Positions 26,742 to 53,621 of a DNA stretch of 53,621 bases are shown here, piece by piece. The DNA is from a virus. Every line of letters begins with the position of its first letter. Position 1 is the stretch's first letter. Where the stretch lies: the IMG/VR virus record IMGVR_UViG_3300036468_000001. One strand, written 5' to 3'. The notes under the pieces were generated by a model, which worked only from the letters and a program-made list of their open reading frames with translations, was not told the DNA's origin and ran no database searches. A program made the translations under genes and the position numbers.

Positions 26742-27869
26742 TCATGCACTTCGTGCCTTGATTTCGGTCCACTCTTTGCCCCGTGAATCGCGGTACAGAG
26801 CCGTCATCTCGGCTGATTTGTGCCCCAGAAGCGCCTGGGCGAACTCGGCGCCGTACTCGTCAGCGTAGAGGCGGGCGGCTAGAGACCGGATCTCATGAAA
26901 CGTCGGCGGAGTCTTGCCCGGATCGACCGCAATCTTTGCCTGGTCACGGAAAGTTGCAAAAACGTCTGAAAAGCTGACCACATGAGGGCTTCCGCCTGGT
27001 CTTGCTGTGCCAACATGCCGCAGGTGATGGATCACGTGCTTGGAGACGATGTTGTCGCGGCATTCCCGTATTACATCGCCGATCGTCAGGCCATCCAGCG
27101 CCTTCAGGCCGACGGTCAGAGGGATTTTCAATCTCGTCCGGCCCTGACTCTTTTTCTGTTCGACGTAGAGGAACCCGTCCTTCACGTGGTCGAACAGCAT
27201 GCTTTTTACATCCTCCCGGCGCTGCGCCGTGACCAGTGCCAACATGAAGGCGCGGGCGGCCCAACCCATCAGCGGATCCTTTCTGGCCTCCGCAACGACC
27301 TTCCAGAAGTCCTCGAGGGTCAATCTTGAACGCAGGACATCTCCTTTCGTTCTCTTTACGGACGAAACCGGATTCTTTCCGGCCTCAATCAAACCCTCTC
27401 CAATCGCCTCGTTGAAGAGGTCGACCAGACGGCTGCGCATCTGCACGGCGTAGGTGTCACTCACCTCCGCGGCGAGCTTCTTCAGAAAGTCCCTGATATC
27501 CCTCGGCGTCACGACATTGACGCGCTGCGCCGCGAAAGGCGCGCGTTTGATGGCCTTCAGGTAGCTGCTGACGGTCGAGCGGGAACCTTCGTTTTCCGTC
27601 CTCTTGGCATAGATAGCCTCGTACTCATCACACCACTGGGAGACGGTCTTCATGCCGCCGTCGATCTTATTAATGAGCGCAACTGCTCCCTTGCGGCGCT
27701 CCAGCTCGGCGTTCGCGGCGCGAGCCTCTGATGAAGCGACCTTGAAGTCGCGCCCCAGACCATACGTCGCCTTGGTTTCCGGGTGCCGGAACCAGTAATA
27801 GCCCTTGGAGTTCTTATACAAGTTGTCGGGCCAGTTACGGCGCGCCGCGATTCGTCGTCTAGCTGCCAT
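26742..27869 (-). CDS. int: tyrosine integrase, lambda Int-like
   Basis: HEIRSLAARLY...LLGHKSAEMTALYRDSRGKEWTEI closely parallels the lambda Int C-terminus. AAGGA RBS. Confidence 0.9.
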   Translation of the reverse strand: MAARRRIAARRNWPDNLYKNSKGYYWFRHPETKATYGLGRDFKVASSEARAANAELERRKGAVALINKIDGGMKTVSQWCDEYEAIYAKRTENEGSRSTVSSYLKAIKRAPFAAQRVNVVTPRDIRDFLKKLAAEVSDTYAVQMRSRLVDLFNEAIGEGLIEAGKNPVSSVKRTKGDVLRSRLTLEDFWKVVAEARKDPLMGWAARAFMLALVTAQRREDVKSMLFDHVKDGFLYVEQKKSQGRTRLKIPLTVGLKALDGLTIGDVIRECRDNIVSKHVIHHLRHVGTARPGGSPHVVSFSDVFATFRDQAKIAVDPGKTPPTFHEIRSLAARLYADEYGAEFAQALLGHKSAEMTALYRDSRGKEWTEIKARSA

Positions 27870-28080
27870 TTGCCATCCTTTCGATACGATCGGCAACCGG
27901 GTCGAAATACTCCGCGTCTGGACGGCAGAAATACTCGCGTCCGACCTTACGGGGTACCGGACGGATCCGCCCGTTGCGTATCCAGTTGAGCAGGGTATTG
28001 CGGTGAGGTTTGTGCTCGCCGAACACATTTTCCGCCCATGACGAGAGTGGTATCAGTTGCGCTGCCATTTCACACCCCAT
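27859..28080 (-). CDS. xis: excisionase
   Basis: NTLLNWIRNGRIRPVPRKVGREYF resembles lambda Xis ETVRRWVRECRIFPPPVKDGREYL. Overlaps the int start. An alternative start lies at 28068. Confidence 0.7.
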   Translation of the reverse strand: MGCEMAAQLIPLSSWAENVFGEHKPHRNTLLNWIRNGRIRPVPRKVGREYFCRPDAEYFDPVADRIERMANGS

Positions 28081-30391: not shown

Positions 30392-30676
30392 TCAACCTTT
30401 GAGCCGATGCACGAAGCCGGTCGGCGTTTTCTCGATTGTCGAATTACTTCCTGCAAGCAGGCGGTCCGGATCGGAGTTCAGTGGTGAGATGAAAAGCGAA
30501 TCTCCGCTCGCACCCGTGGCCTTGATGTAATCGACTTCGACCTTGGCGCTATCGACCAGCACACTGGCCACCTGAGCGACGGCTCGGGCGCGTTCAACGT
30601 CCATCGGCTTCTCGCGATCGCGAAGATCGGCGAGCGTTTTCATCAGGTGTTCGCGCATATCGGTAATGGTGCTCAT
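30392..30676 (-). CDS. hypothetical protein
   Basis: ATGA overlap with the upstream gene. 94 aa. Confidence 0.55.
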   Translation of the reverse strand: MSTITDMREHLMKTLADLRDREKPMDVERARAVAQVASVLVDSAKVEVDYIKATGASGDSLFISPLNSDPDRLLAGSNSTIEKTPTGFVHRLKG

Positions 30677-31383
30677 GACTCTTGCTCCTTCGCCTCGCGG
30701 GCGATTCGGTTGACCTGTCTGGTGATTGCGCCCTTGAGTTGGACCAGCTTGGCAAGCTCCGGCGAGCGCGACCGGGGATGATTGCGACGTGCGAGCTCGC
30801 CGCGGTGCACGAGCTCGAGCGCGTCGAGCGTGATCTTTTCGAGTTCCGCCGTGCGCCGGCCGGGCAGGAAGCAGACCACATGGCCTTTCGGGATCGGACC
30901 GTTCGCGGCTTCCCACACCAGACGGTGCACGCCAACCCAACGTCGCGCCGGCACCGGGTGGTCGTCGTTCGTTTTCTGCTCGAGGTAGCCGTCTTTGCTG
31001 ATTCGATACGATCCGATCGGCACGTAGTTGTGCTGCGCCGCGCCGCTCATCGAGCCTTTCTTGAACTGTGTACGACGAGAATTCGGATGAGTGCCGCAGA
31101 TACCCTTGACACCTTTATTCCATGACGTCTGGCCTGACTTGAACCGCGTCGAGCCTCCACGCTGGCCATCTGTACGGCCCGCGAGCGGTCCCGCAAGATA
31201 GGCTTCAGACTTGCGCAAGCCCATTCCGAGTGCTTTCTGGTAGACGCGCCCGACACTTAGACCCATTGACGCGGCCAGAGTCGGCGTGTGCGCATCTGGA
31301 TACTCAAGCGTCAGACGTTCCTTTTCTGCTTCGGTCCACTTGTGGCGGGGCGCGGTAGTCGATCCGGGTTTGCGCTTCGTCAT
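30673..31383 (-). CDS. HNH_3-like homing-endonuclease-type DNA-binding protein (catalytic motif possibly degenerate)
   Basis: GYLEQK...WVGVHRLVWEAANGPIPKGHVV pattern. ATGA overlap with the DUF1643 gene. Confidence 0.5.
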   Translation of the reverse strand: MTKRKPGSTTAPRHKWTEAEKERLTLEYPDAHTPTLAASMGLSVGRVYQKALGMGLRKSEAYLAGPLAGRTDGQRGGSTRFKSGQTSWNKGVKGICGTHPNSRRTQFKKGSMSGAAQHNYVPIGSYRISKDGYLEQKTNDDHPVPARRWVGVHRLVWEAANGPIPKGHVVCFLPGRRTAELEKITLDALELVHRGELARRNHPRSRSPELAKLVQLKGAITRQVNRIAREAKEQES

Positions 31384-31865
31384 GCTGCCCACTCCATGAG
31401 TTGAGTGTCATACCCGAGCATCAGCGGATGCTTCGGGTCACCTCCCTTTGTGAAGCCGAATATCTTCACTGGCTTGCCGGCGCCGAGAATGCGATGCGCC
31501 AGCGTGTCGAGATGTGGCCGCAGCGCCGCGGGCAACTTCGTGCGATCTCCCCAGCACGGGACAAGCAGGTCCGCGTCCGCGATGATCTGGCCAAGATGCA
31601 TGTCGTTGAATGGGCCGACCGGATCGAGAACTCGCGAGAGCTCGCGAACGTCGCGCGCACGGTATGCGAACGGGTTGCCGGCGACGTACTTGCGCGCGCC
31701 GAGCAAACGCCCGAAGCCGCGCCACTTCATGTCGGTCTGGTCCGGGATGATCGAATCCGCCCACGACGGATTAACGCCAAAGAACGCGACCACGATTCCG
31801 ACAAGCTGCAACTCGCGCTCGAGGCGGTACCGGTATGTGCCACATTCGCTGATGATCGCGGTCAT
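31380..31865 (-). CDS. DUF1643 family protein
   Basis: CGTYRYRLER...FFGVNPSWAD...GNPFAYRA...PCWGD...GDPKHPL matches the DUF1643 pattern as I recall it. ATGA overlap with the RT stop. Confidence 0.65.
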   Translation of the reverse strand: MTAIISECGTYRYRLERELQLVGIVVAFFGVNPSWADSIIPDQTDMKWRGFGRLLGARKYVAGNPFAYRARDVRELSRVLDPVGPFNDMHLGQIIADADLLVPCWGDRTKLPAALRPHLDTLAHRILGAGKPVKIFGFTKGGDPKHPLMLGYDTQLMEWAA

Positions 31866-33187
31866 TGTTTGACCTTCGTGCGGTATGTCTGCGTGAACGT
31901 CCTGTTGACGACGTGTCCTCGGTACCGAACGACGTTCGCGATTCGAGCGCGATCGTGATGGCTCGCCGGCGCCTGACCGAGCAAGCCGAAATAGCTGTTA
32001 GCGACAGGCAGGAAGTCTCCTTCATTGACCTGCGCCACGCGGCGAATTGCTTCGTTCACAGTGCGGCGGCGCGTCGTGCGGGACCATGGCTTGATCACGT
32101 GGCCGACGAAGTCCACGCCGCGCGCGATCGGCTGAAGCACGGTTTTCTTCGGATTGAGCCGAACACCGAGGCGCGCCGGCAGGAAAGCGTCGACCTCGGC
32201 CAGCACCGCGTTTAGCCAGTCGGCAGACGGGTGCAGGAACAGGAAATCGTCCACATAGCGCACGTAGTAACGCGCGCCGAGCTGGTGTTTTGAGCGCTGG
32301 TCGAGCACGTCGAGATAGACGTTGGCGAAGAACTGTGACGACAGGTTGCCGATCGGCAGGCCGAGATGATCCGGCTGGCTAGTCAGGCGCTTGTGCGGCG
32401 GCACACGATCAATCAGCACCGGGTCGCCGCGGAACTCGAAGTTGGTTCGCGGATCGTGCATAAGCACGGTGTCGGTCAGATTCATCCACCACGCTTCATT
32501 GATCTTGCGAGCGAGCAGCTCGCGCAGCTTCAGTTTGTCGATGCTGACGAAGAAATTCGCAATGTCGCACTTCAGGTAGTAAGCCGGCCGAGACCAGTTC
32601 TGCGTAATGCTCCGGATCATCGCCTCGAGCTGCTCTGCGGCATAGAGCGTGCCGCGACCAGGAATGCATGCGCAACTATTGGCGATGAAAGAGTTTTCGA
32701 AGCGCGCCGCGATGCGGTTGTAAAGCAGGTGGTGAACGACGCGATCGCGAAAGTCCGCCGCCCACACTTCGCGCGCCTTCGGACGTGTCACGACGAAACA
32801 GATCGAGCGGCCCGGCTGATACGAGCCGTCGATCAGTTCGTCATGCAGCTGCGACAGGTTACGTTCGAGGTTCTGTTCGAATTCGAGTGCGTTTCGCGTG
32901 TTTCGCTTTGTGCGACGGCAGTCGAAGTACGCGAGAACGAGCTCTTCGAACGTGAGAGCCTCGCTTCCAGCATCGTAATAATCTGCGGACCGCGCGAACC
33001 CGGCCTTTGTTGTTCTTGTTGTTCGCATTCTGGTTGCCATTTGTGAAATTCTGGTACCAAGCGTTGTTGGCCGAGTACTGCGTTCATTCGCACTATCTAC
33101 GTCGCCAGGCCGAAGGCTATCGCCGATCGACGAGGAAACTGCACCAGACCGATCCCGGTTACTCCCGGTGGTATCTGTGATGTGCAT
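31862..33187 (-). CDS. DGR reverse transcriptase (start uncertain: 33187, 33040 or 33028; longest ORF begins at 33289)
   Basis: Carries the DGR-RT motifs PIGNLSSQFFANVYLD and YVRYVDDFLF. An AAGGA RBS precedes the ATG at 33187. There is no in-frame ATG/GTG/TTG between the TR and the conserved core. Confidence 0.85.
   Translation of the reverse strand: MHITDTTGSNRDRSGAVSSSIGDSLRPGDVDSANERSTRPTTLGTRISQMATRMRTTRTTKAGFARSADYYDAGSEALTFEELVLAYFDCRRTKRNTRNALEFEQNLERNLSQLHDELIDGSYQPGRSICFVVTRPKAREVWAADFRDRVVHHLLYNRIAARFENSFIANSCACIPGRGTLYAAEQLEAMIRSITQNWSRPAYYLKCDIANFFVSIDKLKLRELLARKINEAWWMNLTDTVLMHDPRTNFEFRGDPVLIDRVPPHKRLTSQPDHLGLPIGNLSSQFFANVYLDVLDQRSKHQLGARYYVRYVDDFLFLHPSADWLNAVLAEVDAFLPARLGVRLNPKKTVLQPIARGVDFVGHVIKPWSRTTRRRTVNEAIRRVAQVNEGDFLPVANSYFGLLGQAPASHHDRARIANVVRYRGHVVNRTFTQTYRTKVKQ
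32983..33083 (-). repeat. DGR template repeat (TR)
   Basis: A 101-nt ungapped match to three VRs, with all but one difference at TR adenines. It is AAC/AAT-rich in the VR frame, and an in-frame TGA lies just 5' of it. Confidence 0.9.
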
Positions 33188-33237
33188 GTCGGTATCCTTG
33201 TGAGATAGCGGTGCGACCAGATTAAATCGCATAGACC

Positions 33238-33609
33238 TCACCGCCTTGACGATGAAGTAACGAGCGACGATGCGGATTGCTTCTTCCATCCACCGGCCTG
33301 TTTGCCCACTTGTTCGGTTAGCGCGATCGCGGCCGCGTATTGCTTGGTCGCGATGAACCGCATGTCTCTGGACAACCTGAGCAGAAGATTGACCACTTCA
33401 AGACGCTCGAGCAGATCGTTCAGATGCGGTACCTTGTCCATTGCCGCATTGGCGCGAAAGATCAGCGTTACGATCTTCAGCGTCTCCGCTCGAATCTCTC
33501 CGCCGAGCGATTGCTTGAAATCGCGCGGCATATGGCGAGTCGATTCCGTGACCTCTCGGAAGAGGTCGTACGCGACCTTGTAAATGGGCAGGGCGGTGGT
33601 AATGGCCAT
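33238..33609 (-). CDS. avd: Avd-like accessory variability determinant (four-helix-bundle protein)
   Basis: 123 aa, basic and helical. LPIYKVAYDLFREV...MPRDFKQSLGGEIR resembles the Avd / 23S-rRNA-IVS protein family. It sits between the target gene and the TR. Confidence 0.8.
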   Translation of the reverse strand: MAITTALPIYKVAYDLFREVTESTRHMPRDFKQSLGGEIRAETLKIVTLIFRANAAMDKVPHLNDLLERLEVVNLLLRLSRDMRFIATKQYAAAIALTEQVGKQAGGWKKQSASSLVTSSSRR

Positions 33610-33625
33610 GGTTAATTTTTAAATT

Positions 33626-34213
33626 TCAAAAGTCCAATCTGCGGACCGCGCGAACCCGGCCTTTGTCGCTCTTGCCGCCCGCATCCTGGGTGCCACTCGT
33701 GAAATACTGGCACCAAGCGTCGCCGGCCGAGTACTGCGTAGACGTCCAGTGCCACTCTCGGATGAACAGGTCAGGAACGTTCGCGTAAAGCACCGCGCTT
33801 TCTCGCTTCGAGGGTACGTAATAGTCACGGTGACATTCGAACTCCACCTCGCTGCACTTGCGAGCTGCAGGATGATCGCCGGTGGCAATCAGTGCCTGCG
33901 TGTTTGCGTATCCGTCGAACTCGTCCTTGGCGCCCGGCACGTCAACGCCGTAGCCTCCCCACTCCACGTCGCCGAAGGCGCCGATCGTGTCGGGGGAGAT
34001 GATCAACCAGTACGGCCGGCCATCGGCATGCCGCGCGAGGCCACCATTGAACCCGCCTTGGCCGGGCCAAACTTCACCGATACGCGGAACGCTGCGCACA
34101 GCTTCTTCGGTACGGCCCATGACCTTGTCGAGCCATGCGTTGATGGCAACATCCTTGGGCACGCTCAGCTTGCCGCCGTGGAACGGAACTTCGATTTCGC
34201 TTGTGTTGCTCAT
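33626..34213 (-). CDS. DGR variable protein 1 (DUF1566 / C-type-lectin-fold-like C-terminus)
   Basis: GGAGA RBS. The C-terminus WHWTSTQYSAGDAWCQYFTSGTQDAGGKSDKGRVRAVRRLDF contains VR1. Confidence 0.85.
   Translation of the reverse strand: MSNTSEIEVPFHGGKLSVPKDVAINAWLDKVMGRTEEAVRSVPRIGEVWPGQGGFNGGLARHADGRPYWLIISPDTIGAFGDVEWGGYGVDVPGAKDEFDGYANTQALIATGDHPAARKCSEVEFECHRDYYVPSKRESAVLYANVPDLFIREWHWTSTQYSAGDAWCQYFTSGTQDAGGKSDKGRVRAVRRLDF
33639..33739 (-). repeat. DGR variable repeat VR1
   Basis: 15 mismatches to the TR, all at TR adenines. Confidence 0.9.
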
Positions 34214-34275: not shown

Positions 34276-34896
34276 CTAAATTTTGACTCTGCGGACCGCG
34301 CGAAGCCGGCCTTTGCCGTCCTTGCCGTCCGCACCCTGGTAGCCATCTGCGAAACCCTGGTACCAAGCGCTGAGGGCCGAGTACTGCGTGCTTGTCCAAT
34401 ACCACTCGTCGGCGAAGGACTCTGCGCCGCCTTCACGGAACAGTTCGACGGGCGTCTGGCCCGGCAGGTGGATCGAATACGGATAGCCGACCGGCAGACT
34501 GCTCGGGTTGTCGCCGCTGCGGTAGACGTAGTTCTCTTCGGTGGTCGGCTTGAAGCCGCGGTAGAGCAGCTCGACCTGATCGCGCGCGCCGATGTGCCAG
34601 TCGTCGAAACCGCCGATACGCAGCTCGAGCACCTGTTGTGCGATCTCGCTGCCGGCCTCGGCCATCGCCTTGGTATTGGCGAGTCCGTCGAAGAAACTGT
34701 CGGCTCCCTCGATCAGCTTGTAATCGGGATGCCAGATGACCGGACCGAGATCGCCTTCGTTCTTCGGCGCGACGACTTGTGCGAACACGTCACCGTTGAA
34801 GGTGATGATGCCGGCGAAGTAACCGCCTTCCCACGGCGTGCCGAAAACGGTCGGAACTTCCTGCTTTGCCAGTGGCAGATTTGAGATTGCGTTCAT
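34276..34896 (-). CDS. DGR variable protein 2 (paralog of variable protein 1)
   Basis: GGAG RBS. The C-terminus WYWTSTQYSALSAWYQGFADGYQGADGKDGKGRLRAVRRVKI contains VR2. Confidence 0.85.
   Translation of the reverse strand: MNAISNLPLAKQEVPTVFGTPWEGGYFAGIITFNGDVFAQVVAPKNEGDLGPVIWHPDYKLIEGADSFFDGLANTKAMAEAGSEIAQQVLELRIGGFDDWHIGARDQVELLYRGFKPTTEENYVYRSGDNPSSLPVGYPYSIHLPGQTPVELFREGGAESFADEWYWTSTQYSALSAWYQGFADGYQGADGKDGKGRLRAVRRVKI
34289..34389 (-). repeat. DGR variable repeat VR2
   Basis: 16 mismatches at TR adenines, plus one C/G difference in the GC-rich 3' end. Confidence 0.9.
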
Positions 34897-37053: not shown

Positions 37054-38622
37054 TCAGAACGCGGTTGCCAGACGTTCGTTGGCCGCCTCGAGGTTCATGT
37101 CGAGCAGCCACGAAAGAACGACGCTCTCGTGCACACGGTAGTTCGTCGCGAGAGTCGCGATGATCTCGTCGTCGGTGGGGCGCTTCGGTGCGGCGGCGCG
37201 ACCAGTCCGGGCGGGTGTCTTGACCGGCTGCGCGGCGGCCACGGCAGGCGTGCTGGCGGCCGCAGTCGGCGCGAAGCTGGCTTCCTGAGATGCGGTCTGT
37301 TCGGCGGCGCACGCCTGCGCCTGACGAGTCTGTTCGAGTCGTTCTTCCTCGACCTTCTTGTGCTGCTCGATGCGCGACGTCACGGCGAGCTTGAAGTCAT
37401 CGGCCGGCTTCTGGATAAGCGTCTGCAGGTCACGGAACAGGAAACCGTATGCTTCGTCCTGTGGCCGGTACCAGTCGAGTTTCGAGCGCATCTCGCGCGC
37501 GGCCGCGTCGGCGGCGATCTTGCCGTTGGCAACGGTCGTATCGATCGATTCATGCAGGCTCGCAAGCGTGCGCTTGTTCTTCGCCGCAGCAACAAAGTCT
37601 GGAGCCGCAATATCGAGGCGCACCATGCTGAGTTCCGCATTCAGCGCCGCAACATGGTCGGCGAACCGCTTGCGGCCGTCGGCGATGATCTGATCCTTGA
37701 TCTCGCCCTTGCGCTTCGTCACCAGTTTGTCGAGTCCGAGACGCTTCTCGCGCAGCTGCGCCTTGATGTGGTCCAGCGTGCGCATCAGATCGTCGATGCT
37801 GGCCGTCTGCGAGATCGCGGCGTTCTTGGCGACCTCGAGTTCCTTCTCGGCCTTCTCGCAGAACTTGACTGTTTCTTCCGCGTCCGCGAAGTCCTGATCC
37901 GTTTGCAGATCCGTCTTGATGTTCGCGATGAACTGTTCGGCGGCCGCCTTGAAGCGCGGCAGATTGCTCGTGACGACCTTGCCTTCGATCTGCACGGCGA
38001 GAGTCGGGAGGCCCATGATCACTTCCGCTTGGGGCTTCTCGGCGAGTTCGCGCGGTTTATACTCGGCCAGATCCTTCTCGAACTGGGCCCAGCCTGCGCG
38101 CAAGCGTTCGAACCACGCCGGATCTGGCTTGACCCACATCGAGGCCATGTTGTCCCGCGTGCCGTCGGAACAAACGAAAAGCAGTTTGCTGGCGCCGCTG
38201 ACCATCAGCAACTGCTGCGCCTGTGGCATGTAGGCGTCGGGCAGTTCCTTGCGCTTGATCGAGTCGAACAGCGCCTGGTTGAACTGCTTATGCTCGAACG
38301 CAATGGTTTCATCCATCGTCAGACCGTCGAACGATCCCGACAGCAGACCTTCAGAGCCGACGACCGGGTAAAGATCTTCGCCGATGGCTTCTTCGACGAG
38401 CGGCCGGGCAAGCGCTTCAACTTCGTGACCTTTGTCGAGGATGTGCTCTTGGAACCAGTCGCTGTATTCCTTCGCCGTGCCGGTGTGCTTCATGTGAAGC
38501 AGCTCGTTGCGCTTCACGTTGGCGGACAGGCCGAGCATCGCCGCGGCTTCGCTAGAGCCGAAATGCTTGTGGCGAAAGGCAAGCCATTCGTCGGAACCCT
38601 GAATTAGGTCGTGAGTTTCCAT
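37054..38622 (-). CDS. YqaJ-type (lambda Exo-like) exonuclease with a ~320-aa C-terminal extension
   Basis: IQGSDEWLAFRHKHFGSSEAAAMLG...DGLTMDETIAFEHKQ is the YqaJ pattern. The C-terminal part is a long charged helical region. Confidence 0.75.
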   Translation of the reverse strand: METHDLIQGSDEWLAFRHKHFGSSEAAAMLGLSANVKRNELLHMKHTGTAKEYSDWFQEHILDKGHEVEALARPLVEEAIGEDLYPVVGSEGLLSGSFDGLTMDETIAFEHKQFNQALFDSIKRKELPDAYMPQAQQLLMVSGASKLLFVCSDGTRDNMASMWVKPDPAWFERLRAGWAQFEKDLAEYKPRELAEKPQAEVIMGLPTLAVQIEGKVVTSNLPRFKAAAEQFIANIKTDLQTDQDFADAEETVKFCEKAEKELEVAKNAAISQTASIDDLMRTLDHIKAQLREKRLGLDKLVTKRKGEIKDQIIADGRKRFADHVAALNAELSMVRLDIAAPDFVAAAKNKRTLASLHESIDTTVANGKIAADAAAREMRSKLDWYRPQDEAYGFLFRDLQTLIQKPADDFKLAVTSRIEQHKKVEEERLEQTRQAQACAAEQTASQEASFAPTAAASTPAVAAAQPVKTPARTGRAAAPKRPTDDEIIATLATNYRVHESVVLSWLLDMNLEAANERLATAF

Positions 38623-38627
38623 GCTTG

Positions 38628-39527
38628 TTACGCTCCCTGATTGCCGTTGTCCTGCGCCCACGACCGGATTTCTTTCTTCTGCGATTCGGTCAGCGACGCA
38701 CCTTTGGTTTCGATGAACGCGATCATCTTTTCGGGCGTCTTTCGACCGGTCGCGACGACGGTCTTCCAGTCGTCCTTGTTCTTGTCGAACTTCTCCTGGT
38801 CGTAGGTCACCTTCTCGGTGGCTTGAGAAGAAGCTGCCGCACGATTACTGTTTCCCTGCTGTTCCGTGTGGGACGACTGACCGGAATCTCCCTCTGCACC
38901 GCCCTGACCGTCGTCGTCTTCACCTTTGGTGGACATGCCGGATGCCGCTAGCAGGGTGTAACGCTGCAGGTATGTGATCGTGCTGCCGCCCTGTTGCAGA
39001 ACGTTTTTCTTTCCGCTGTTGTCCGGAGGGCCTTCCATCGACACTTTCTTCGAATGCCCCATGACATGCGTCACGATGCAATCGACCTCGATCTTTCCCG
39101 GGCTTTGACGGATATCCCAGTCATAGGTAAGTCCGTGCGCCCCCATGGCGGGACCAAGAACATCGGTGACGTCTGACAGTTCGGCGTGCCTGTAGCCGAC
39201 AAAGTCGCCGTCCTTCGTGTTGTAGCCGACGGCCTTGCGCTTGAAAATCGGCGGGCAGGTACGCTTGAACTCGGTCATCGCCGCGACGAACGCCTTGCGT
39301 GCTTCGTTTGCCTCCCAGCGCTGCTGCAGTTCCATCAATTTCTCAAGACGATCGAGATCGGCGTTCGTCTGGATCGCCAGGCGCAGCAGATCGGCGGGGG
39401 TCGTGAGAGAGATGCCCGTGCCGTGGTTGGTGGAAAGAGCCGATTGCTGCTGCGCAACCGGAGGCCGCGCCGTCGGCGTCTCTGAGGTATCGACGTCGAT
39501 GACGTCGGCCATGGTTGCGGTGTTCAT
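38628..39527 (-). CDS. single-strand annealing protein, Erf/Rad52-like
   Basis: FVGYRHAELSDVTDVLGPAMGAHGL and QQGGSTITYLQRYTLLAASG resemble conserved Erf-family blocks. It is paired with the exonuclease. Confidence 0.6.
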   Translation of the reverse strand: MNTATMADVIDVDTSETPTARPPVAQQQSALSTNHGTGISLTTPADLLRLAIQTNADLDRLEKLMELQQRWEANEARKAFVAAMTEFKRTCPPIFKRKAVGYNTKDGDFVGYRHAELSDVTDVLGPAMGAHGLTYDWDIRQSPGKIEVDCIVTHVMGHSKKVSMEGPPDNSGKKNVLQQGGSTITYLQRYTLLAASGMSTKGEDDDGQGGAEGDSGQSSHTEQQGNSNRAAASSQATEKVTYDQEKFDKNKDDWKTVVATGRKTPEKMIAFIETKGASLTESQKKEIRSWAQDNGNQGA

Positions 39528-41579: not shown

Positions 41580-41616
41580 CACGTTCTCCCGTGAGAACTA
41601 CGAAATAAATAAATTC

Positions 41617-42111
41617 TTAAATTTTGACTCTGCGGACCGCGCGAACCCGGCCTTTGACGTTCTTGCCGTCCGCAAACTGGAAGCCATATGCGAAACCCTG
41701 GCACCAAGCGCCGTAGGCCGAGGACTGCGTGCTCGACCAGTACCAGGAGGGCGCAAATTTTTCGGCGATCGTCGCGTAGCAGAGGTTCAGCTCACGCTGG
41801 GCCGGCAGATAGAAATCGGTGTGTCCGTCTTTCGAGTACTCCGCGGCCCAGGCGGCGGCCGGGTGCTTCGAAGTCGCGCCAAGAAGTGCCCGCGTGTTCG
41901 CGGCACCGTCGAGCCGGCTGTCGCACTCCGGAACCTTCATGCCGTACGGACCCCACTCGAAATCCATGCCTTCGTCGAGCGAAGCGATCAGGTGGTAGTC
42001 GGGCGCGTCGCCTTGGCCGGGCATCAGGCCGGCGTAAATGCCGCCTTGGCCCTCCCAATAGACGCCAAGGCGTGGTGCGACGAGAACGGGTTTGTCTTGG
42101 ACTTCGGACAT
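41617..42111 (-). CDS. DGR variable protein 3 (remote paralog of variable proteins 1 and 2)
   Basis: GGAG RBS. The C-terminus WYWSSTQSSAYGAWCQGFAYGFQFADGKNVKGRVRAVRRVKI contains VR3. Confidence 0.85.
   Translation of the reverse strand: MSEVQDKPVLVAPRLGVYWEGQGGIYAGLMPGQGDAPDYHLIASLDEGMDFEWGPYGMKVPECDSRLDGAANTRALLGATSKHPAAAWAAEYSKDGHTDFYLPAQRELNLCYATIAEKFAPSWYWSSTQSSAYGAWCQGFAYGFQFADGKNVKGRVRAVRRVKI
41630..41730 (-). repeat. DGR variable repeat VR3 (about 8.6 kb from the TR)
   Basis: 18 mismatches to the TR, all at TR adenines. Confidence 0.9.
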
Positions 42112-42138: not shown

Positions 42139-42402
42139 TTAGTGAACGACGCACGCACGATAGGCGTCGGTCGGGTCAAGTTCTTCGTCTTGCAAAAGCG
42201 TCCAGACGAAGCGGTCGTAGAAGCGAGACTCCATGAAGTGGAGCGCCTGATCGATGATCAGATCCGCGGCCGCCTGGTCTTCCTTGAAGATCGCGTTGAC
42301 ATCGATTTCGTTGCCAAAGTCGTCGGTGATCAGTTCGATGCACGGCAGAACTCGGCCACGCGACGTCTGGATGCGATGTACTGAAAAAGGGATGAGGCGC
42401 AT
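42139..42402 (-). CDS. hypothetical protein, first gene of the early-left operon
   Basis: GGAGA RBS before the ATG at 42402. The ORF track starts at 42414. Confidence 0.55.
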   Translation of the reverse strand: MRLIPFSVHRIQTSRGRVLPCIELITDDFGNEIDVNAIFKEDQAAADLIIDQALHFMESRFYDRFVWTLLQDEELDPTDAYRACVVH

Positions 42403-42439: not shown

Positions 42440-42480
42440 ACTATACGTCAACGAATAGAAATGTCAATGCGCGAATGAAT
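42440..42480 (-). promoter_or_regulatory. PL-like early-left promoter with an operator-like 19-mer
   Basis: On the minus strand: TTGACA-N16-TATAGT. The 19-mer TGTCAATGCGCGAATGAAT (42462-42480) recurs inverted at 43808-43826. Confidence 0.45.
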
Positions 42481-42499
42481 AATTCAAGGCATGGGGAAA

Positions 42500-43111: not shown

Positions 43112-43765
43112 TCAATGTCGAATATTTTTTGATCGCTTTTCCCCGACTCTTCGCGCCGCACGTTTTTCCTCGGTACGTGTGGCGAGGTGGCTCTCAGCAT
43201 CCTCCATGGCTCTCGCGGCCTGCTCGCTGATGCTCTGCATCGCGGGTGAGGACTTTACCGCCTCGTCTTTCTTCAGAGGGGTCAGTTTGCCACTTTCCGG
43301 CGCTCTGAGTTGGGAAAAAAGCACGCGCACTGCATCAAAAGTTTCACGCGGAGCGTCTCGTTTGTATGCCTCCCGGATAGCCGCAATCGCGTCCTGAACA
43401 TAGGCCGGCAAAAGCGCATCCACATACTGTTCGGCTTGAGATCGGGCTTCCTCTTCAGTGAGTGAAGACTGATTTTTTGCCTCAAATACGGCGGTTGGAA
43501 CCTTGTTTCTGTCGAGCTGCACGTAGTCGATGCTGTGCTTTGGCTCGCGGCCAGTCAGCAGCCAGTCGGTGGTGACATTGAACTCGTGCGCCAACTTGGC
43601 GAGGGTCCCCATCTCTGGCGTCGATTTTTTCCCCAGGATTCGGTTGATGGTGGGCTGTGGAACACCCGTCTTTTTGCCGAGCGCACTTTGGCCGCCGCGC
43701 CCCCTGTACAGCGGGTTTGCCTGCATTAGTTCGTTCAGTCGATCGCCTACATCATCTTCTTTCAT
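43112..43765 (-). CDS. cI-like XRE-family HTH repressor (no S24 peptidase signature seen)
   Basis: QSALGKKTGVPQPTINRILGKK...LAKLAHEFNVTTDWLLTG. Divergent from the cro-like gene. Confidence 0.7.
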   Translation of the reverse strand: MKEDDVGDRLNELMQANPLYRGRGGQSALGKKTGVPQPTINRILGKKSTPEMGTLAKLAHEFNVTTDWLLTGREPKHSIDYVQLDRNKVPTAVFEAKNQSSLTEEEARSQAEQYVDALLPAYVQDAIAAIREAYKRDAPRETFDAVRVLFSQLRAPESGKLTPLKKDEAVKSSPAMQSISEQAARAMEDAESHLATRTEEKRAARRVGEKRSKNIRH

Positions 43766-43801: not shown

Positions 43802-43807
43802 AGTTCG

Positions 43808-43848
43808 ATTCATTCGCGCATTGACAAATATTCGTTCGCGTATAGAAT
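43808..43848 (+). promoter_or_regulatory. PR-like early-right promoter with an operator-like 19-mer
   Basis: TTGACA (43821-26), N16, TAGAAT (43843-48). The inverted copy of the 19-mer lies at 43808-43826. Confidence 0.45.
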
Positions 43849-43856
43849 TGGCATTC

Positions 43857-49093: not shown

Positions 49094-49516
49094 GTGACTC
49101 ACGCATACATCGGCACCAAGATCATTACGGCATGGCCTGAATCCCGTCCGAACGGCGAAGGCTACGCAGTCACGTATCCGGATGGCTATACGAGCTGGTC
49201 GCCTAAAGCTACTTTCGAAGAAGCGTATCGCGTCGTCGAAGGCGACGACCAGAAACTGTCGTTCGGCGACGCGCTGGTTTTTCTGAAGGCTGGTCGGCGC
49301 GTATCTCGCGGTGCTTGGCCCGCCAGTGTGTTTGTCTATCACGTGGCTGCTGATGCTTACATCGCGCGCTCAGAGGTGGCGAAAACTCACTTTGGTGATG
49401 GTGCGCTAGTGCCATATAAGGCGTATCTCGCGATCAAACAGGCCGACAACGAAGTGTGCGTATTCGTGCCGGGCATGGATTCGCTGCTTGCGGAAGATTG
49501 GCGCGTCGTCGCGTAA
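49094..49516 (+). CDS. DUF2829-domain protein (Tad2-like candidate anti-Thoeris sponge)
   Basis: GTG start after AAGGAG. LSFGDALVFLKAGRRVSRGAW...YLAIKQ...PGMDSLLAEDWRVV follows the DUF2829 pattern. Confidence 0.6.
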   Translation: MTHAYIGTKIITAWPESRPNGEGYAVTYPDGYTSWSPKATFEEAYRVVEGDDQKLSFGDALVFLKAGRRVSRGAWPASVFVYHVAADAYIARSEVAKTHFGDGALVPYKAYLAIKQADNEVCVFVPGMDSLLAEDWRVVA

Positions 49517-53294: not shown

Positions 53295-53621
53295 GCCGAC
53301 GGCCAGACAGTCGCAGGCGCTAAGGACGATTGGAAGTGACGCGCTGCACATCCTGCTTGAGGGTGGGAGCCGCAGCGGCAAGACCTTCATAGCGTGCCGC
53401 GCGGTGGTTGTGCGGGCGCTGGCGGCGGCCGGATCGAGACACGCGATATTCCGGTTCCGGTTCAGCCACGCCAAGGCGTCGGTCGGTCTGGACACGCTGC
53501 CGAAGGTGTTCAAGGTCTGCTTTCCGAATGTCGAGTATCACCTCGACAAGACGGATTGGGTGTTCCGTCTGCCGAACGGGTCGGAGATCTGGATCGGCGG
53601 TCTGGACGACAAGGACCGGGT
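53284..53621 (+). CDS. terL: terminase large subunit, N-terminal part (continues at window position 1)
   Basis: Walker A LLEGGSRSGKTF. The reading frame joins 1..1133 through the duplicated 127 bp. Confidence 0.85.
   Translation, partial: MSYKPTARQSQALRTIGSDALHILLEGGSRSGKTFIACRAVVVRALAAAGSRHAIFRFRFSHAKASVGLDTLPKVFKVCFPNVEYHLDKTDWVFRLPNGSEIWIGGLDDKDR
53495..53621. repeat. exact duplicate of window bases 1-127 (circular-assembly overlap or terminal redundancy)
   Basis: Direct reading shows the sequence from CGCTGCCGAAGGTGTTCAAGG to GACAAGGACCGGGT is identical at both window ends. Confidence 0.95.

Follow-up and report, generated by a model that had tools for sequence, protein, structure and literature searches.

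Non-adjacent targets of DGRs, and cassettes serving several targets, have been catalogued in a survey of 372 DGRs (Wu et al., 2018, Nucleic Acids Res 46:11, PMC5758913), ~15% of which carry more than one target in the cassette and 45 of which have non-adjacent targets. Those of phage-associated DGRs were accepted when they differed from the template repeat (TR) only by A-to-N changes, formed part of no other DGR and were situated in the same prophage. In this sense, the survey lists “many examples” of phage-associated DGRs with a non-adjacent target in the same prophage, where one TR serves an adjacent target together with one lying a few kb to <50 kb away, and it found no natural distance cut-off below 10 kb (Wu et al., 2018). 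Targets of the DUF1566 type (CLec2) form its “category d”, which comprises 14% of the DGRs, half of them with short, DUF1566-only targets. The methods of a later study state that additional VRs per RT were recorded, although we found no multi-target statistics there (Roux et al., 2021).

Three individual systems stand closest to the locus described here. The DGR of Bordetella phage BPP-1 (mtd-avd-TR-brt) combines an Avd, TR and RT core with adenine-specific mutagenesis of AAC/AAT codons, and its VR lies at the C-terminus of a C-type-lectin fold and has a GC-rich 3′ end. All of these properties are found in the present locus; nonetheless, BPP-1 has a single adjacent target, a tail-fibre protein belonging to the structural module, whereas three small stand-alone targets are served here, in the early region of the genome. 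In the DGR of Legionella pneumophila, a member of “category d”, the VR is carried by a C-type-lectin fold of the DUF1566/Lcl_C type, as in the present targets, for one of which (T3, see below) the best match among solved structures is the Lcl C-terminal domain of Legionella. Its target, the surface lipoprotein LdtA, is that of a chromosomal island element, whereas our targets lack a signal or lipoprotein sequence and belong to the early-left operon of a P22-like temperate phage. Finally, the DGR of Treponema denticola (TvpA and up to seven remote targets) shares with ours the use of one TR in trans on dispersed paralogous targets; it is chromosomal, with targets up to Mb away and of the FGE-sulfatase-type CLec1 fold, whereas the present element is phage-borne, reaches its targets within 9 kb and is of the DUF1566 type.

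The locus lies in a stretch of viral DNA of 53,621 nt (IMG/VR record IMGVR_UViG_3300036468_000001), which will be referred to as “the window”. Since its first ~127 nt (1-127) are repeated at 53494-53621, it is a circularly closed assembly of ~53.5 kb; contigs of 53,626-53,747 nt recur in several samples. The phage is temperate and P22-like: its portal and coat are of the P22 type and its integrase (26742-28028) is of the lambda type. Its host is probably a member of the Burkholderiaceae, the closest cultured setting being Paraburkholderia and Trinickia.

One RT and one TR are present in this circular genome. The DGR reverse transcriptase (31862-33040, minus strand) matches PF00078 (E=7e-16) and shows the motifs LPIGNLSSQ and YVDD. 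Its top relative among solved structures is 8ub7, deposited as “Reverse transcriptase” (entries 8ub7-8ube; 328 aa, E=1e-37), which we take to be the bRT of Bordetella phage BPP-1; group II intron and retron RTs follow far behind, at E=1e-9 or worse. The only in-frame start codons of the RT are the ATGs at 33040 and 33028, the second being chosen by the gene caller (388 aa), and no ATG, GTG or TTG occurs in the RT frame between the TR 3′ end and the RT domain. As both starts sit inside the TR, in a further departure from BPP-1, the RT would begin with 15-20 TR-encoded residues. The accessory protein Avd (33238-33609, minus strand; 123 aa) matches PF22296 bAvd with 54.4 bits against a cut-off of 40, and the NF033474 DGR Avd model with E=9e-18 and 64.5 bits, below the cut-off of 80 of that model. 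The reading frames of RT and Avd are apparently intact. Directly downstream of the RT, and in the same orientation, there are genes for a DUF1643 protein (31380-31865, phrog_3230) and an HNH endonuclease (30673-31392), whereas a DNA methylase is encoded by the gene after the RT in the closest full relative (L163, see below).

The TR (32982-33083, minus strand) aligns without gaps to a 102-nt segment at 41629-41730 on the same strand, VR3, from which it is separated by 8546 nt (start-to-start offset, 8647 nt). The original prediction had placed an ungapped VR3 of 101 nt at 41630-41730, and is thus corrected by a single base. In a blastn search within the window this alignment has E=3.6e-25; it is one of exactly three matches that the TR has outside itself (E=5e-30, 3e-26 and 4e-25), and there is no fourth, the next best hit having E=0.28. 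Re-alignment reproduced the 18 mismatches counted previously, and all 18 correspond to a plus-strand T in the TR, that is, to an adenine on the coding (minus) strand, whereas the 67 non-adenine positions of the TR, synonymous sites included, are all unchanged in VR3. With 35 adenines in the 102 nt of the TR core, the probability that 18 of 18 mismatches fall on adenines by chance is ~1e-10. The substitutions comprise ten A>G, seven A>T and one A>C. Transversions had been predicted, and they do occur, but the TT-to-AA pair given as their example is situated at 33034-33035 rather than at 33036-33037, where the TR reads GC; a second such pair is found at 33028-33029. Read in the frame of the targets, the TR presents its variable positions as AAC/AAT codons, and the VR changes fall on the first and second codon positions, which is the classic DGR design. 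Two adenine-rich lysine codons of the TR, AAG and AAA (~33007-33024, minus strand), are unaltered in all three VRs. One of them corresponds to K150 of the protein that carries VR3, which does not vary in an alignment of 13 sequences and whose conservation in a set of 48 homologues is at least 90%; the strong conservation of this residue, together with its unchanged codon in the VRs, suggests selection against variants at this position.

VR3 is situated at the C-terminus of T3, a protein of 164 aa encoded at 41617-42111 (minus strand), and ends 12 nt before its stop codon. The two RT-proximal targets are TA (195 aa; 33626-34213, minus strand), with VRa at 33638-33739, and TB (206 aa; 34276-34896, minus strand), with VRb at 34288-34389. 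VRa differs from the TR at 15 positions, all of them TR adenines, and VRb at 17, of which 16 are TR adenines. The remaining VRb mismatch falls within the GC-rich 3′ segment, at 34305, where C is replaced by G (plus strand); it is the sole non-adenine TR/VR difference in the genome and converts GRVRAVRR into GRLRAVRR in the protein. T3 is 42-45% identical to TA and TB as a protein, and its paralogy with the adjacent targets stands as predicted; the high divergence of the rest of the gene contrasts with the unchanged non-adenine positions of VR3. The mutual divergence of the three VRs had been seen as fitting independent retrohoming, and the pairwise comparison agrees with this: the VRs differ from one another at 12, 17 and 19 positions, of which 11, 17 and 18, respectively, are TR adenines. 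Since the differences among the VRs lie almost only at TR adenines, separate homing events into the three VRs are suggested, a pattern that does not fit a VR duplicated after its diversification.

Gene conversion or simple paralogy, involving three gene duplicates and a fourth copy of pseudogene-like character (the “TR”), might be proposed to produce these repeats without reverse transcription, as the three genes are paralogues and the 28-nt segment common to the four repeats could support recombination. However, such a process would not confine 50 of 51 differences to the adenines of one copy, nor to the first and second positions of AAC/AAT codons; furthermore, it is the TR copy that RT and Avd flank, and dozens of independent loci show this pattern again. 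We consider this explanation highly improbable, and it is effectively refuted by the adenine restriction (P ~1e-10 for VR3 alone).

Set against the class described by Wu et al. (2018), VR3 shows A-restricted mismatches only, in a genome with a single RT, a single TR and three TR matches, and lies 8.5 kb from the TR. The locus differs from the phage DGRs of that class in being a new sequence and in having two adjacent targets besides the non-adjacent one. The third-target layout thus fits the described class on every criterion of Wu et al. (2018) that was tested. The original prediction that one TR serving three targets, one of them remote, is uncommon for phage DGRs was overstated, as the layout is reported in that survey and also occurs in 25 of the 56 informative relatives (~45%) presented below.

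Altogether, we regard it as very probable that VR3 is a genuine third target of the single DGR of this phage, reached by trans-acting retrohoming. By analogy with the paradigm of Bordetella phage BPP-1, the element Avd-TR-RT (31862-33609, minus strand) would transcribe the TR, and RT and Avd would copy the TR RNA into cDNA with misincorporation opposite template adenines. In each of the three paralogous genes, the cDNA would then replace the homologous 102-nt stretch at the 3′ end, the 3′ boundary of the exchange being set at the GC-rich segment and its 5′ boundary by upstream homology. As the TR would act in trans, a target 8.5 kb off would be reached no differently from the two adjacent targets. 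The outcome would be three small proteins of the C-type-lectin fold, each with its ligand-binding face randomised at ~12 Asn-templated codons.

The GC-rich 3′ segment of VR3, AAAGGCCGGGTTCGCGCGGTCCGCAGA on the minus strand (28 nt, 41629-41656), is identical in the TR, VRa and VR3 and has the single C>G change in VRb; it is presumed to be an IMH-like element where cDNA integration would be primed. Because this segment is identical in the TR and VRs, it does not separate an IMH from an IMH*, and any distinction between the TR as donor and the VRs as recipients must rest on the sequence past it. The flanks do diverge just there, with GTCAAAATTTA in VR3 and VRb and TTATTACGATGC in the TR. After GTCAAAATTTA, VR3 and VRb run into an AT-rich stretch (41590-41628 for VR3), and the VRa flank is a related AT-rich stretch, so that each VR is followed by AT-rich sequence with AAATTTA-like text. 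The orthologues of three related loci (L161-L163) have kept AATTTA.TTATTTCG in the sequence downstream of their remote VR. Unlike in BPP-1, no GC-rich hairpin common to the three VR downstream flanks was found; a 6-bp hairpin after VR3, GTTCTC-ACGG-GAGAAC (41584-41599), coincides in part with the ribosome-binding site of the gene that follows.

The lack of a BPP-1-like GC hairpin after VR3 would agree with VR3 being a fossil target, rewritten once but no longer a substrate (e.g., after loss of a downstream recognition element), in which case only the adjacent VRs, or none, would be diversified today. We judge this to be unlikely. The flank downstream of VR3 is ~80% identical to that of VRb and is conserved in L161-L163, and VR3 has none of 67 non-adenine positions changed with respect to the TR, whereas VRb has one such change. 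The same explanation also draws on the uniformity of VR3 among public sequences. VR variation was sought by exact look-up of T3, its two flanking genes and Avd. VR3 proved 100% identical in every public assembly of the window phage (>12 contigs from ENA, JGI and Logan), including several of the ENA series ERZ272472xx and ERZ25043468, JGI 3300033830, 3300033431 and 3300033894, and Logan SRR26984572, SRR12226569 and SRR10916988. However, the assemblies that reach VRa and VRb are identical to the window there too, so that VR3 shows no specific deficit; an invariant VR3 beside variable adjacent VRs, named in the original prediction as a refuting observation, was not seen among them. Thus, no variation in any of the three VRs was seen among these assemblies by three look-up routes, a comparison in which the samples are possibly non-independent and consensus assemblies hide minor variants. 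The sole SNP in the DGR region, G>T at 34397 (minus strand), changes a Trp codon in TB immediately 5′ to VRb and is not a TR-adenine position; it was seen in contigs of ERZ27247218 and JGI 3300033894. The DGR of the window phage may still be active; the uniformity of its VRs, the lack of a shared GC hairpin, the identity of the 3′ segment in the TR and VRs and the unusual RT start inside the TR count against the proposed retrohoming.

Contigs of two samples break at 41620-41648. These breaks were considered as a signature of hypervariability and rejected as such, since VR3 is identical to the window up to each break; being located in the 28-nt segment shared by the TR and VRs, with the VR3 sequence unchanged, they are attributed to an effect of this exact repeat, of which there are four copies. 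The fact that some low-coverage assemblies break exactly at this shared 3′ segment could also be taken to mean that VR3 is an assembly artefact, a VR of the adjacent cassette mis-joined at the remote position. This is hardly credible: several assemblies, obtained independently and with different assemblers, agree on this join, which is bordered by unique sequence on either side; VR3 has a sequence of its own within a separate paralogue; and orthologous remote targets are found in isolate genomes.

Relatives of the locus were gathered by scans of IMG/VR and JGI metagenomes and by exact-protein look-ups, and each locus was analysed with one script, in which the targets, Avd and RT were located by tblastn and the Avd-RT interval was subsequently compared with the locus by blastn. 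In 27 of the 85 distinct loci of this DGR lineage, a non-adjacent target lies upstream of the TR of the locus itself, at a distance of 2.9-10.5 kb; where 9 kb or more of sequence is available on that side, the remote target is present in 25 of 56 loci (~45%). The remote targets of the 27 loci are always co-oriented, and at least 80%, mostly 100%, of their mismatches lie at adenines. In the closest full relative (L163), from an assembly of Paraburkholderia sp., 7358 nt separate the remote VR from the TR, and all 12 mismatches lie at A. The gene order of L163 is that of the window (repressor, 87-aa ORF, remote target, recombination module, two adjacent targets, Avd, RT), with RecT in place of ERF in the recombination module. 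The nearest scaffold relatives of T3 are the remote copies of other loci (L163, L006 and L007) and not the co-resident paralogues; hence the remote copy is an old gene of conserved position rather than a recent duplication.

Two pairs of these loci with 100% identical TRs and ~94% identical target scaffolds allow the remote and adjacent VRs to be compared directly. The members of the first pair (L039/L049) differ in the remote VR at 19 positions, all at TR adenines, and in the adjacent VRs at 15 of 15 and 16 of 17 positions that are TR adenines; in the second pair (L050/L053) the corresponding values are 16 of 16 for the remote VR and 15 of 15 and 13 of 13 for the adjacent ones. As these pairs differ comparably at both places, the remote targets of the lineage have been rewritten about as much as the adjacent ones, which argues further against VR3 being a fossil and for its being a genuine target. 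The original prediction had asked whether VR3 varies only at TR-adenine positions among relatives. The remote VRs of the two pairs do so. The orthologues of L161 and L162 are 81-82% identical to T3 at the amino acid level; their comparison with VR3 against the window TR is confounded, as they evidently have different TRs of their own, and shows only an elevated divergence at the A positions (34-49%, with 9-12% at the non-A VR positions and ~15% outside the VR). Relative to this divergence, the 0 of 67 non-A changes of VR3 with respect to the resident TR, as against 9-12% in L161/L162, points to a recent overwriting of VR3 from that TR.

As regards closer sequences, the scan of metagenome contigs yielded no relative nearer than 58% aa, and hence no population series for the window phage, and DNA searches of a cultured-phage collection (41400-42500 in distant mode; 1-25000 in near mode) gave no useful match, neither a cultured phage nor a deposited record corresponding to it at the DNA level. 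A bacterial contig (L258; GCA_046027835.1, JAQQDT010000017.1, 111224-131595) encodes an identical Avd protein and a TR differing at three positions. The VR differences of its two adjacent targets all fall on adenines (11/11 and 18/18), no remote target occurs within 8.7 kb upstream, and a ~1.9-kb deletion with respect to the window (32653 to 30780) truncates its RT. This contig has the appearance of a relative in decay.

The position of T3 in the genome is that of an early gene. A pL-like promoter, TTGACA-16-TATAGT (42440-42467, minus strand), sigma-70-like with 11 of 12 consensus matches and of presumed promoter function, and a pR-like promoter (43821-43848, plus strand), also with 11 of 12 matches, face away from each other on either side of a gene for a CI-like HTH repressor (43112-43765, minus strand). 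Around 30 nt of near-identical text, ATTCATTCGCGCATTGACA...TATTCGTT..CGTATAG, is common to both sites (42440-42490, minus strand; 43805-43850, plus strand), and judging from the sequence the promoter pair looks like a lambda-style pL/pR arrangement with common operators. Only one gene, an 87-aa ORF (42139-42402), precedes T3 downstream of the pL-like site. The interval between T3 and the DGR core is occupied by small ORFs and by a recombination module, consisting of an ERF annealase (38628-39527, minus strand) and a YqaJ-like exonuclease (37054-38622, minus strand). No convincing minus-strand terminator was found between T3 and the DGR core, where the terminator count does not exceed the shuffled expectation. 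The original placement of VR3 near the start of the same leftward operon, with the recombination module intervening, agrees with the pL-like promoter, the shared strand and the intervening ERF and YqaJ genes. T3 and the DGR core would be co-transcribed, and expression from the pL-like promoter would be restricted to lytic growth or induction. Next to NinB, in the rightward early region, a 140-aa ORF (49094-49516, plus strand) has a precomputed Pfam match to PF11195, the Tad2-like anti-Thoeris family.

T3 is a standalone protein of the C-type-lectin fold (DUF1566/Lcl_C-like). It matches PF07603 Lcl_C (formerly DUF1566) with E=7e-7 and 29.9 bits, missing the gathering cut-off of 34.9, and TA and TB likewise match this family below threshold. 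Many close T3 homologues have a precomputed PF07603 match and the NCBI name “DUF1566 domain-containing protein”, and T3 behaves as a DUF1566 protein, at best as a divergent member. All three targets also match phrog_4245, a family of unknown function (E=3e-31 for T3). An AlphaFold (AF2) model of T3, built from 48 homologues, has a pLDDT of 95, and its best PDB fold matches with Foldseek are the C-terminal domain of Legionella Lcl (8q4e, E=6.5e-6) and a Bacteroides fimbrial protein (4eps), followed by a long list of C-type lectins. Read from the sequences, none of T3, TA and TB has an N-terminal signal-like hydrophobic stretch. Homologues of these small targets are widespread in Burkholderiaceae, Pseudomonas, Comamonadaceae and other Pseudomonadota, and cultured Pseudomonas phages, too, encode such proteins, under the annotation “hypothetical”. 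For example, Pseudomonas phage Aurca01 (L240, PP179334.1) carries two tandem target homologues in its early-left operon, downstream of ERF, exonuclease and SSB, with no annotated Avd or RT adjoining, so that the target protein family exists also without a DGR.

One function that might be envisaged for the three diversified proteins is that of intracellular, early-expressed variable binders (e.g., counter-defence or host-takeover factors) rather than receptor-binding parts of the virion. We put this forward as a speculation of low probability. It is left open by the missing signal peptide, the pL-type early operon far from the structural module and the place of T3 as second gene behind the pL-like promoter; its position is also kept in relatives across swaps of the recombination module, and the DGR-less homologues of cultured Pseudomonas phages occupy the same position. 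If this were true, the remote copy would be kept apart because it is needed immediately-early.

Broadly, the window phage provides a clean and complete example of a temperate phage DGR diversifying three paralogous genes of the C-type-lectin fold from one template. The arrangement of two adjacent targets plus one remote target is no curiosity of one genome: it recurs, with conserved positions, in a large DGR lineage of proteobacterial phages. This is useful for DGR annotation pipelines, which often search only near the RT, and for the choice of model systems. The more interesting question concerns the role that small, signal-less, early-operon proteins of the lectin fold play for the phage.
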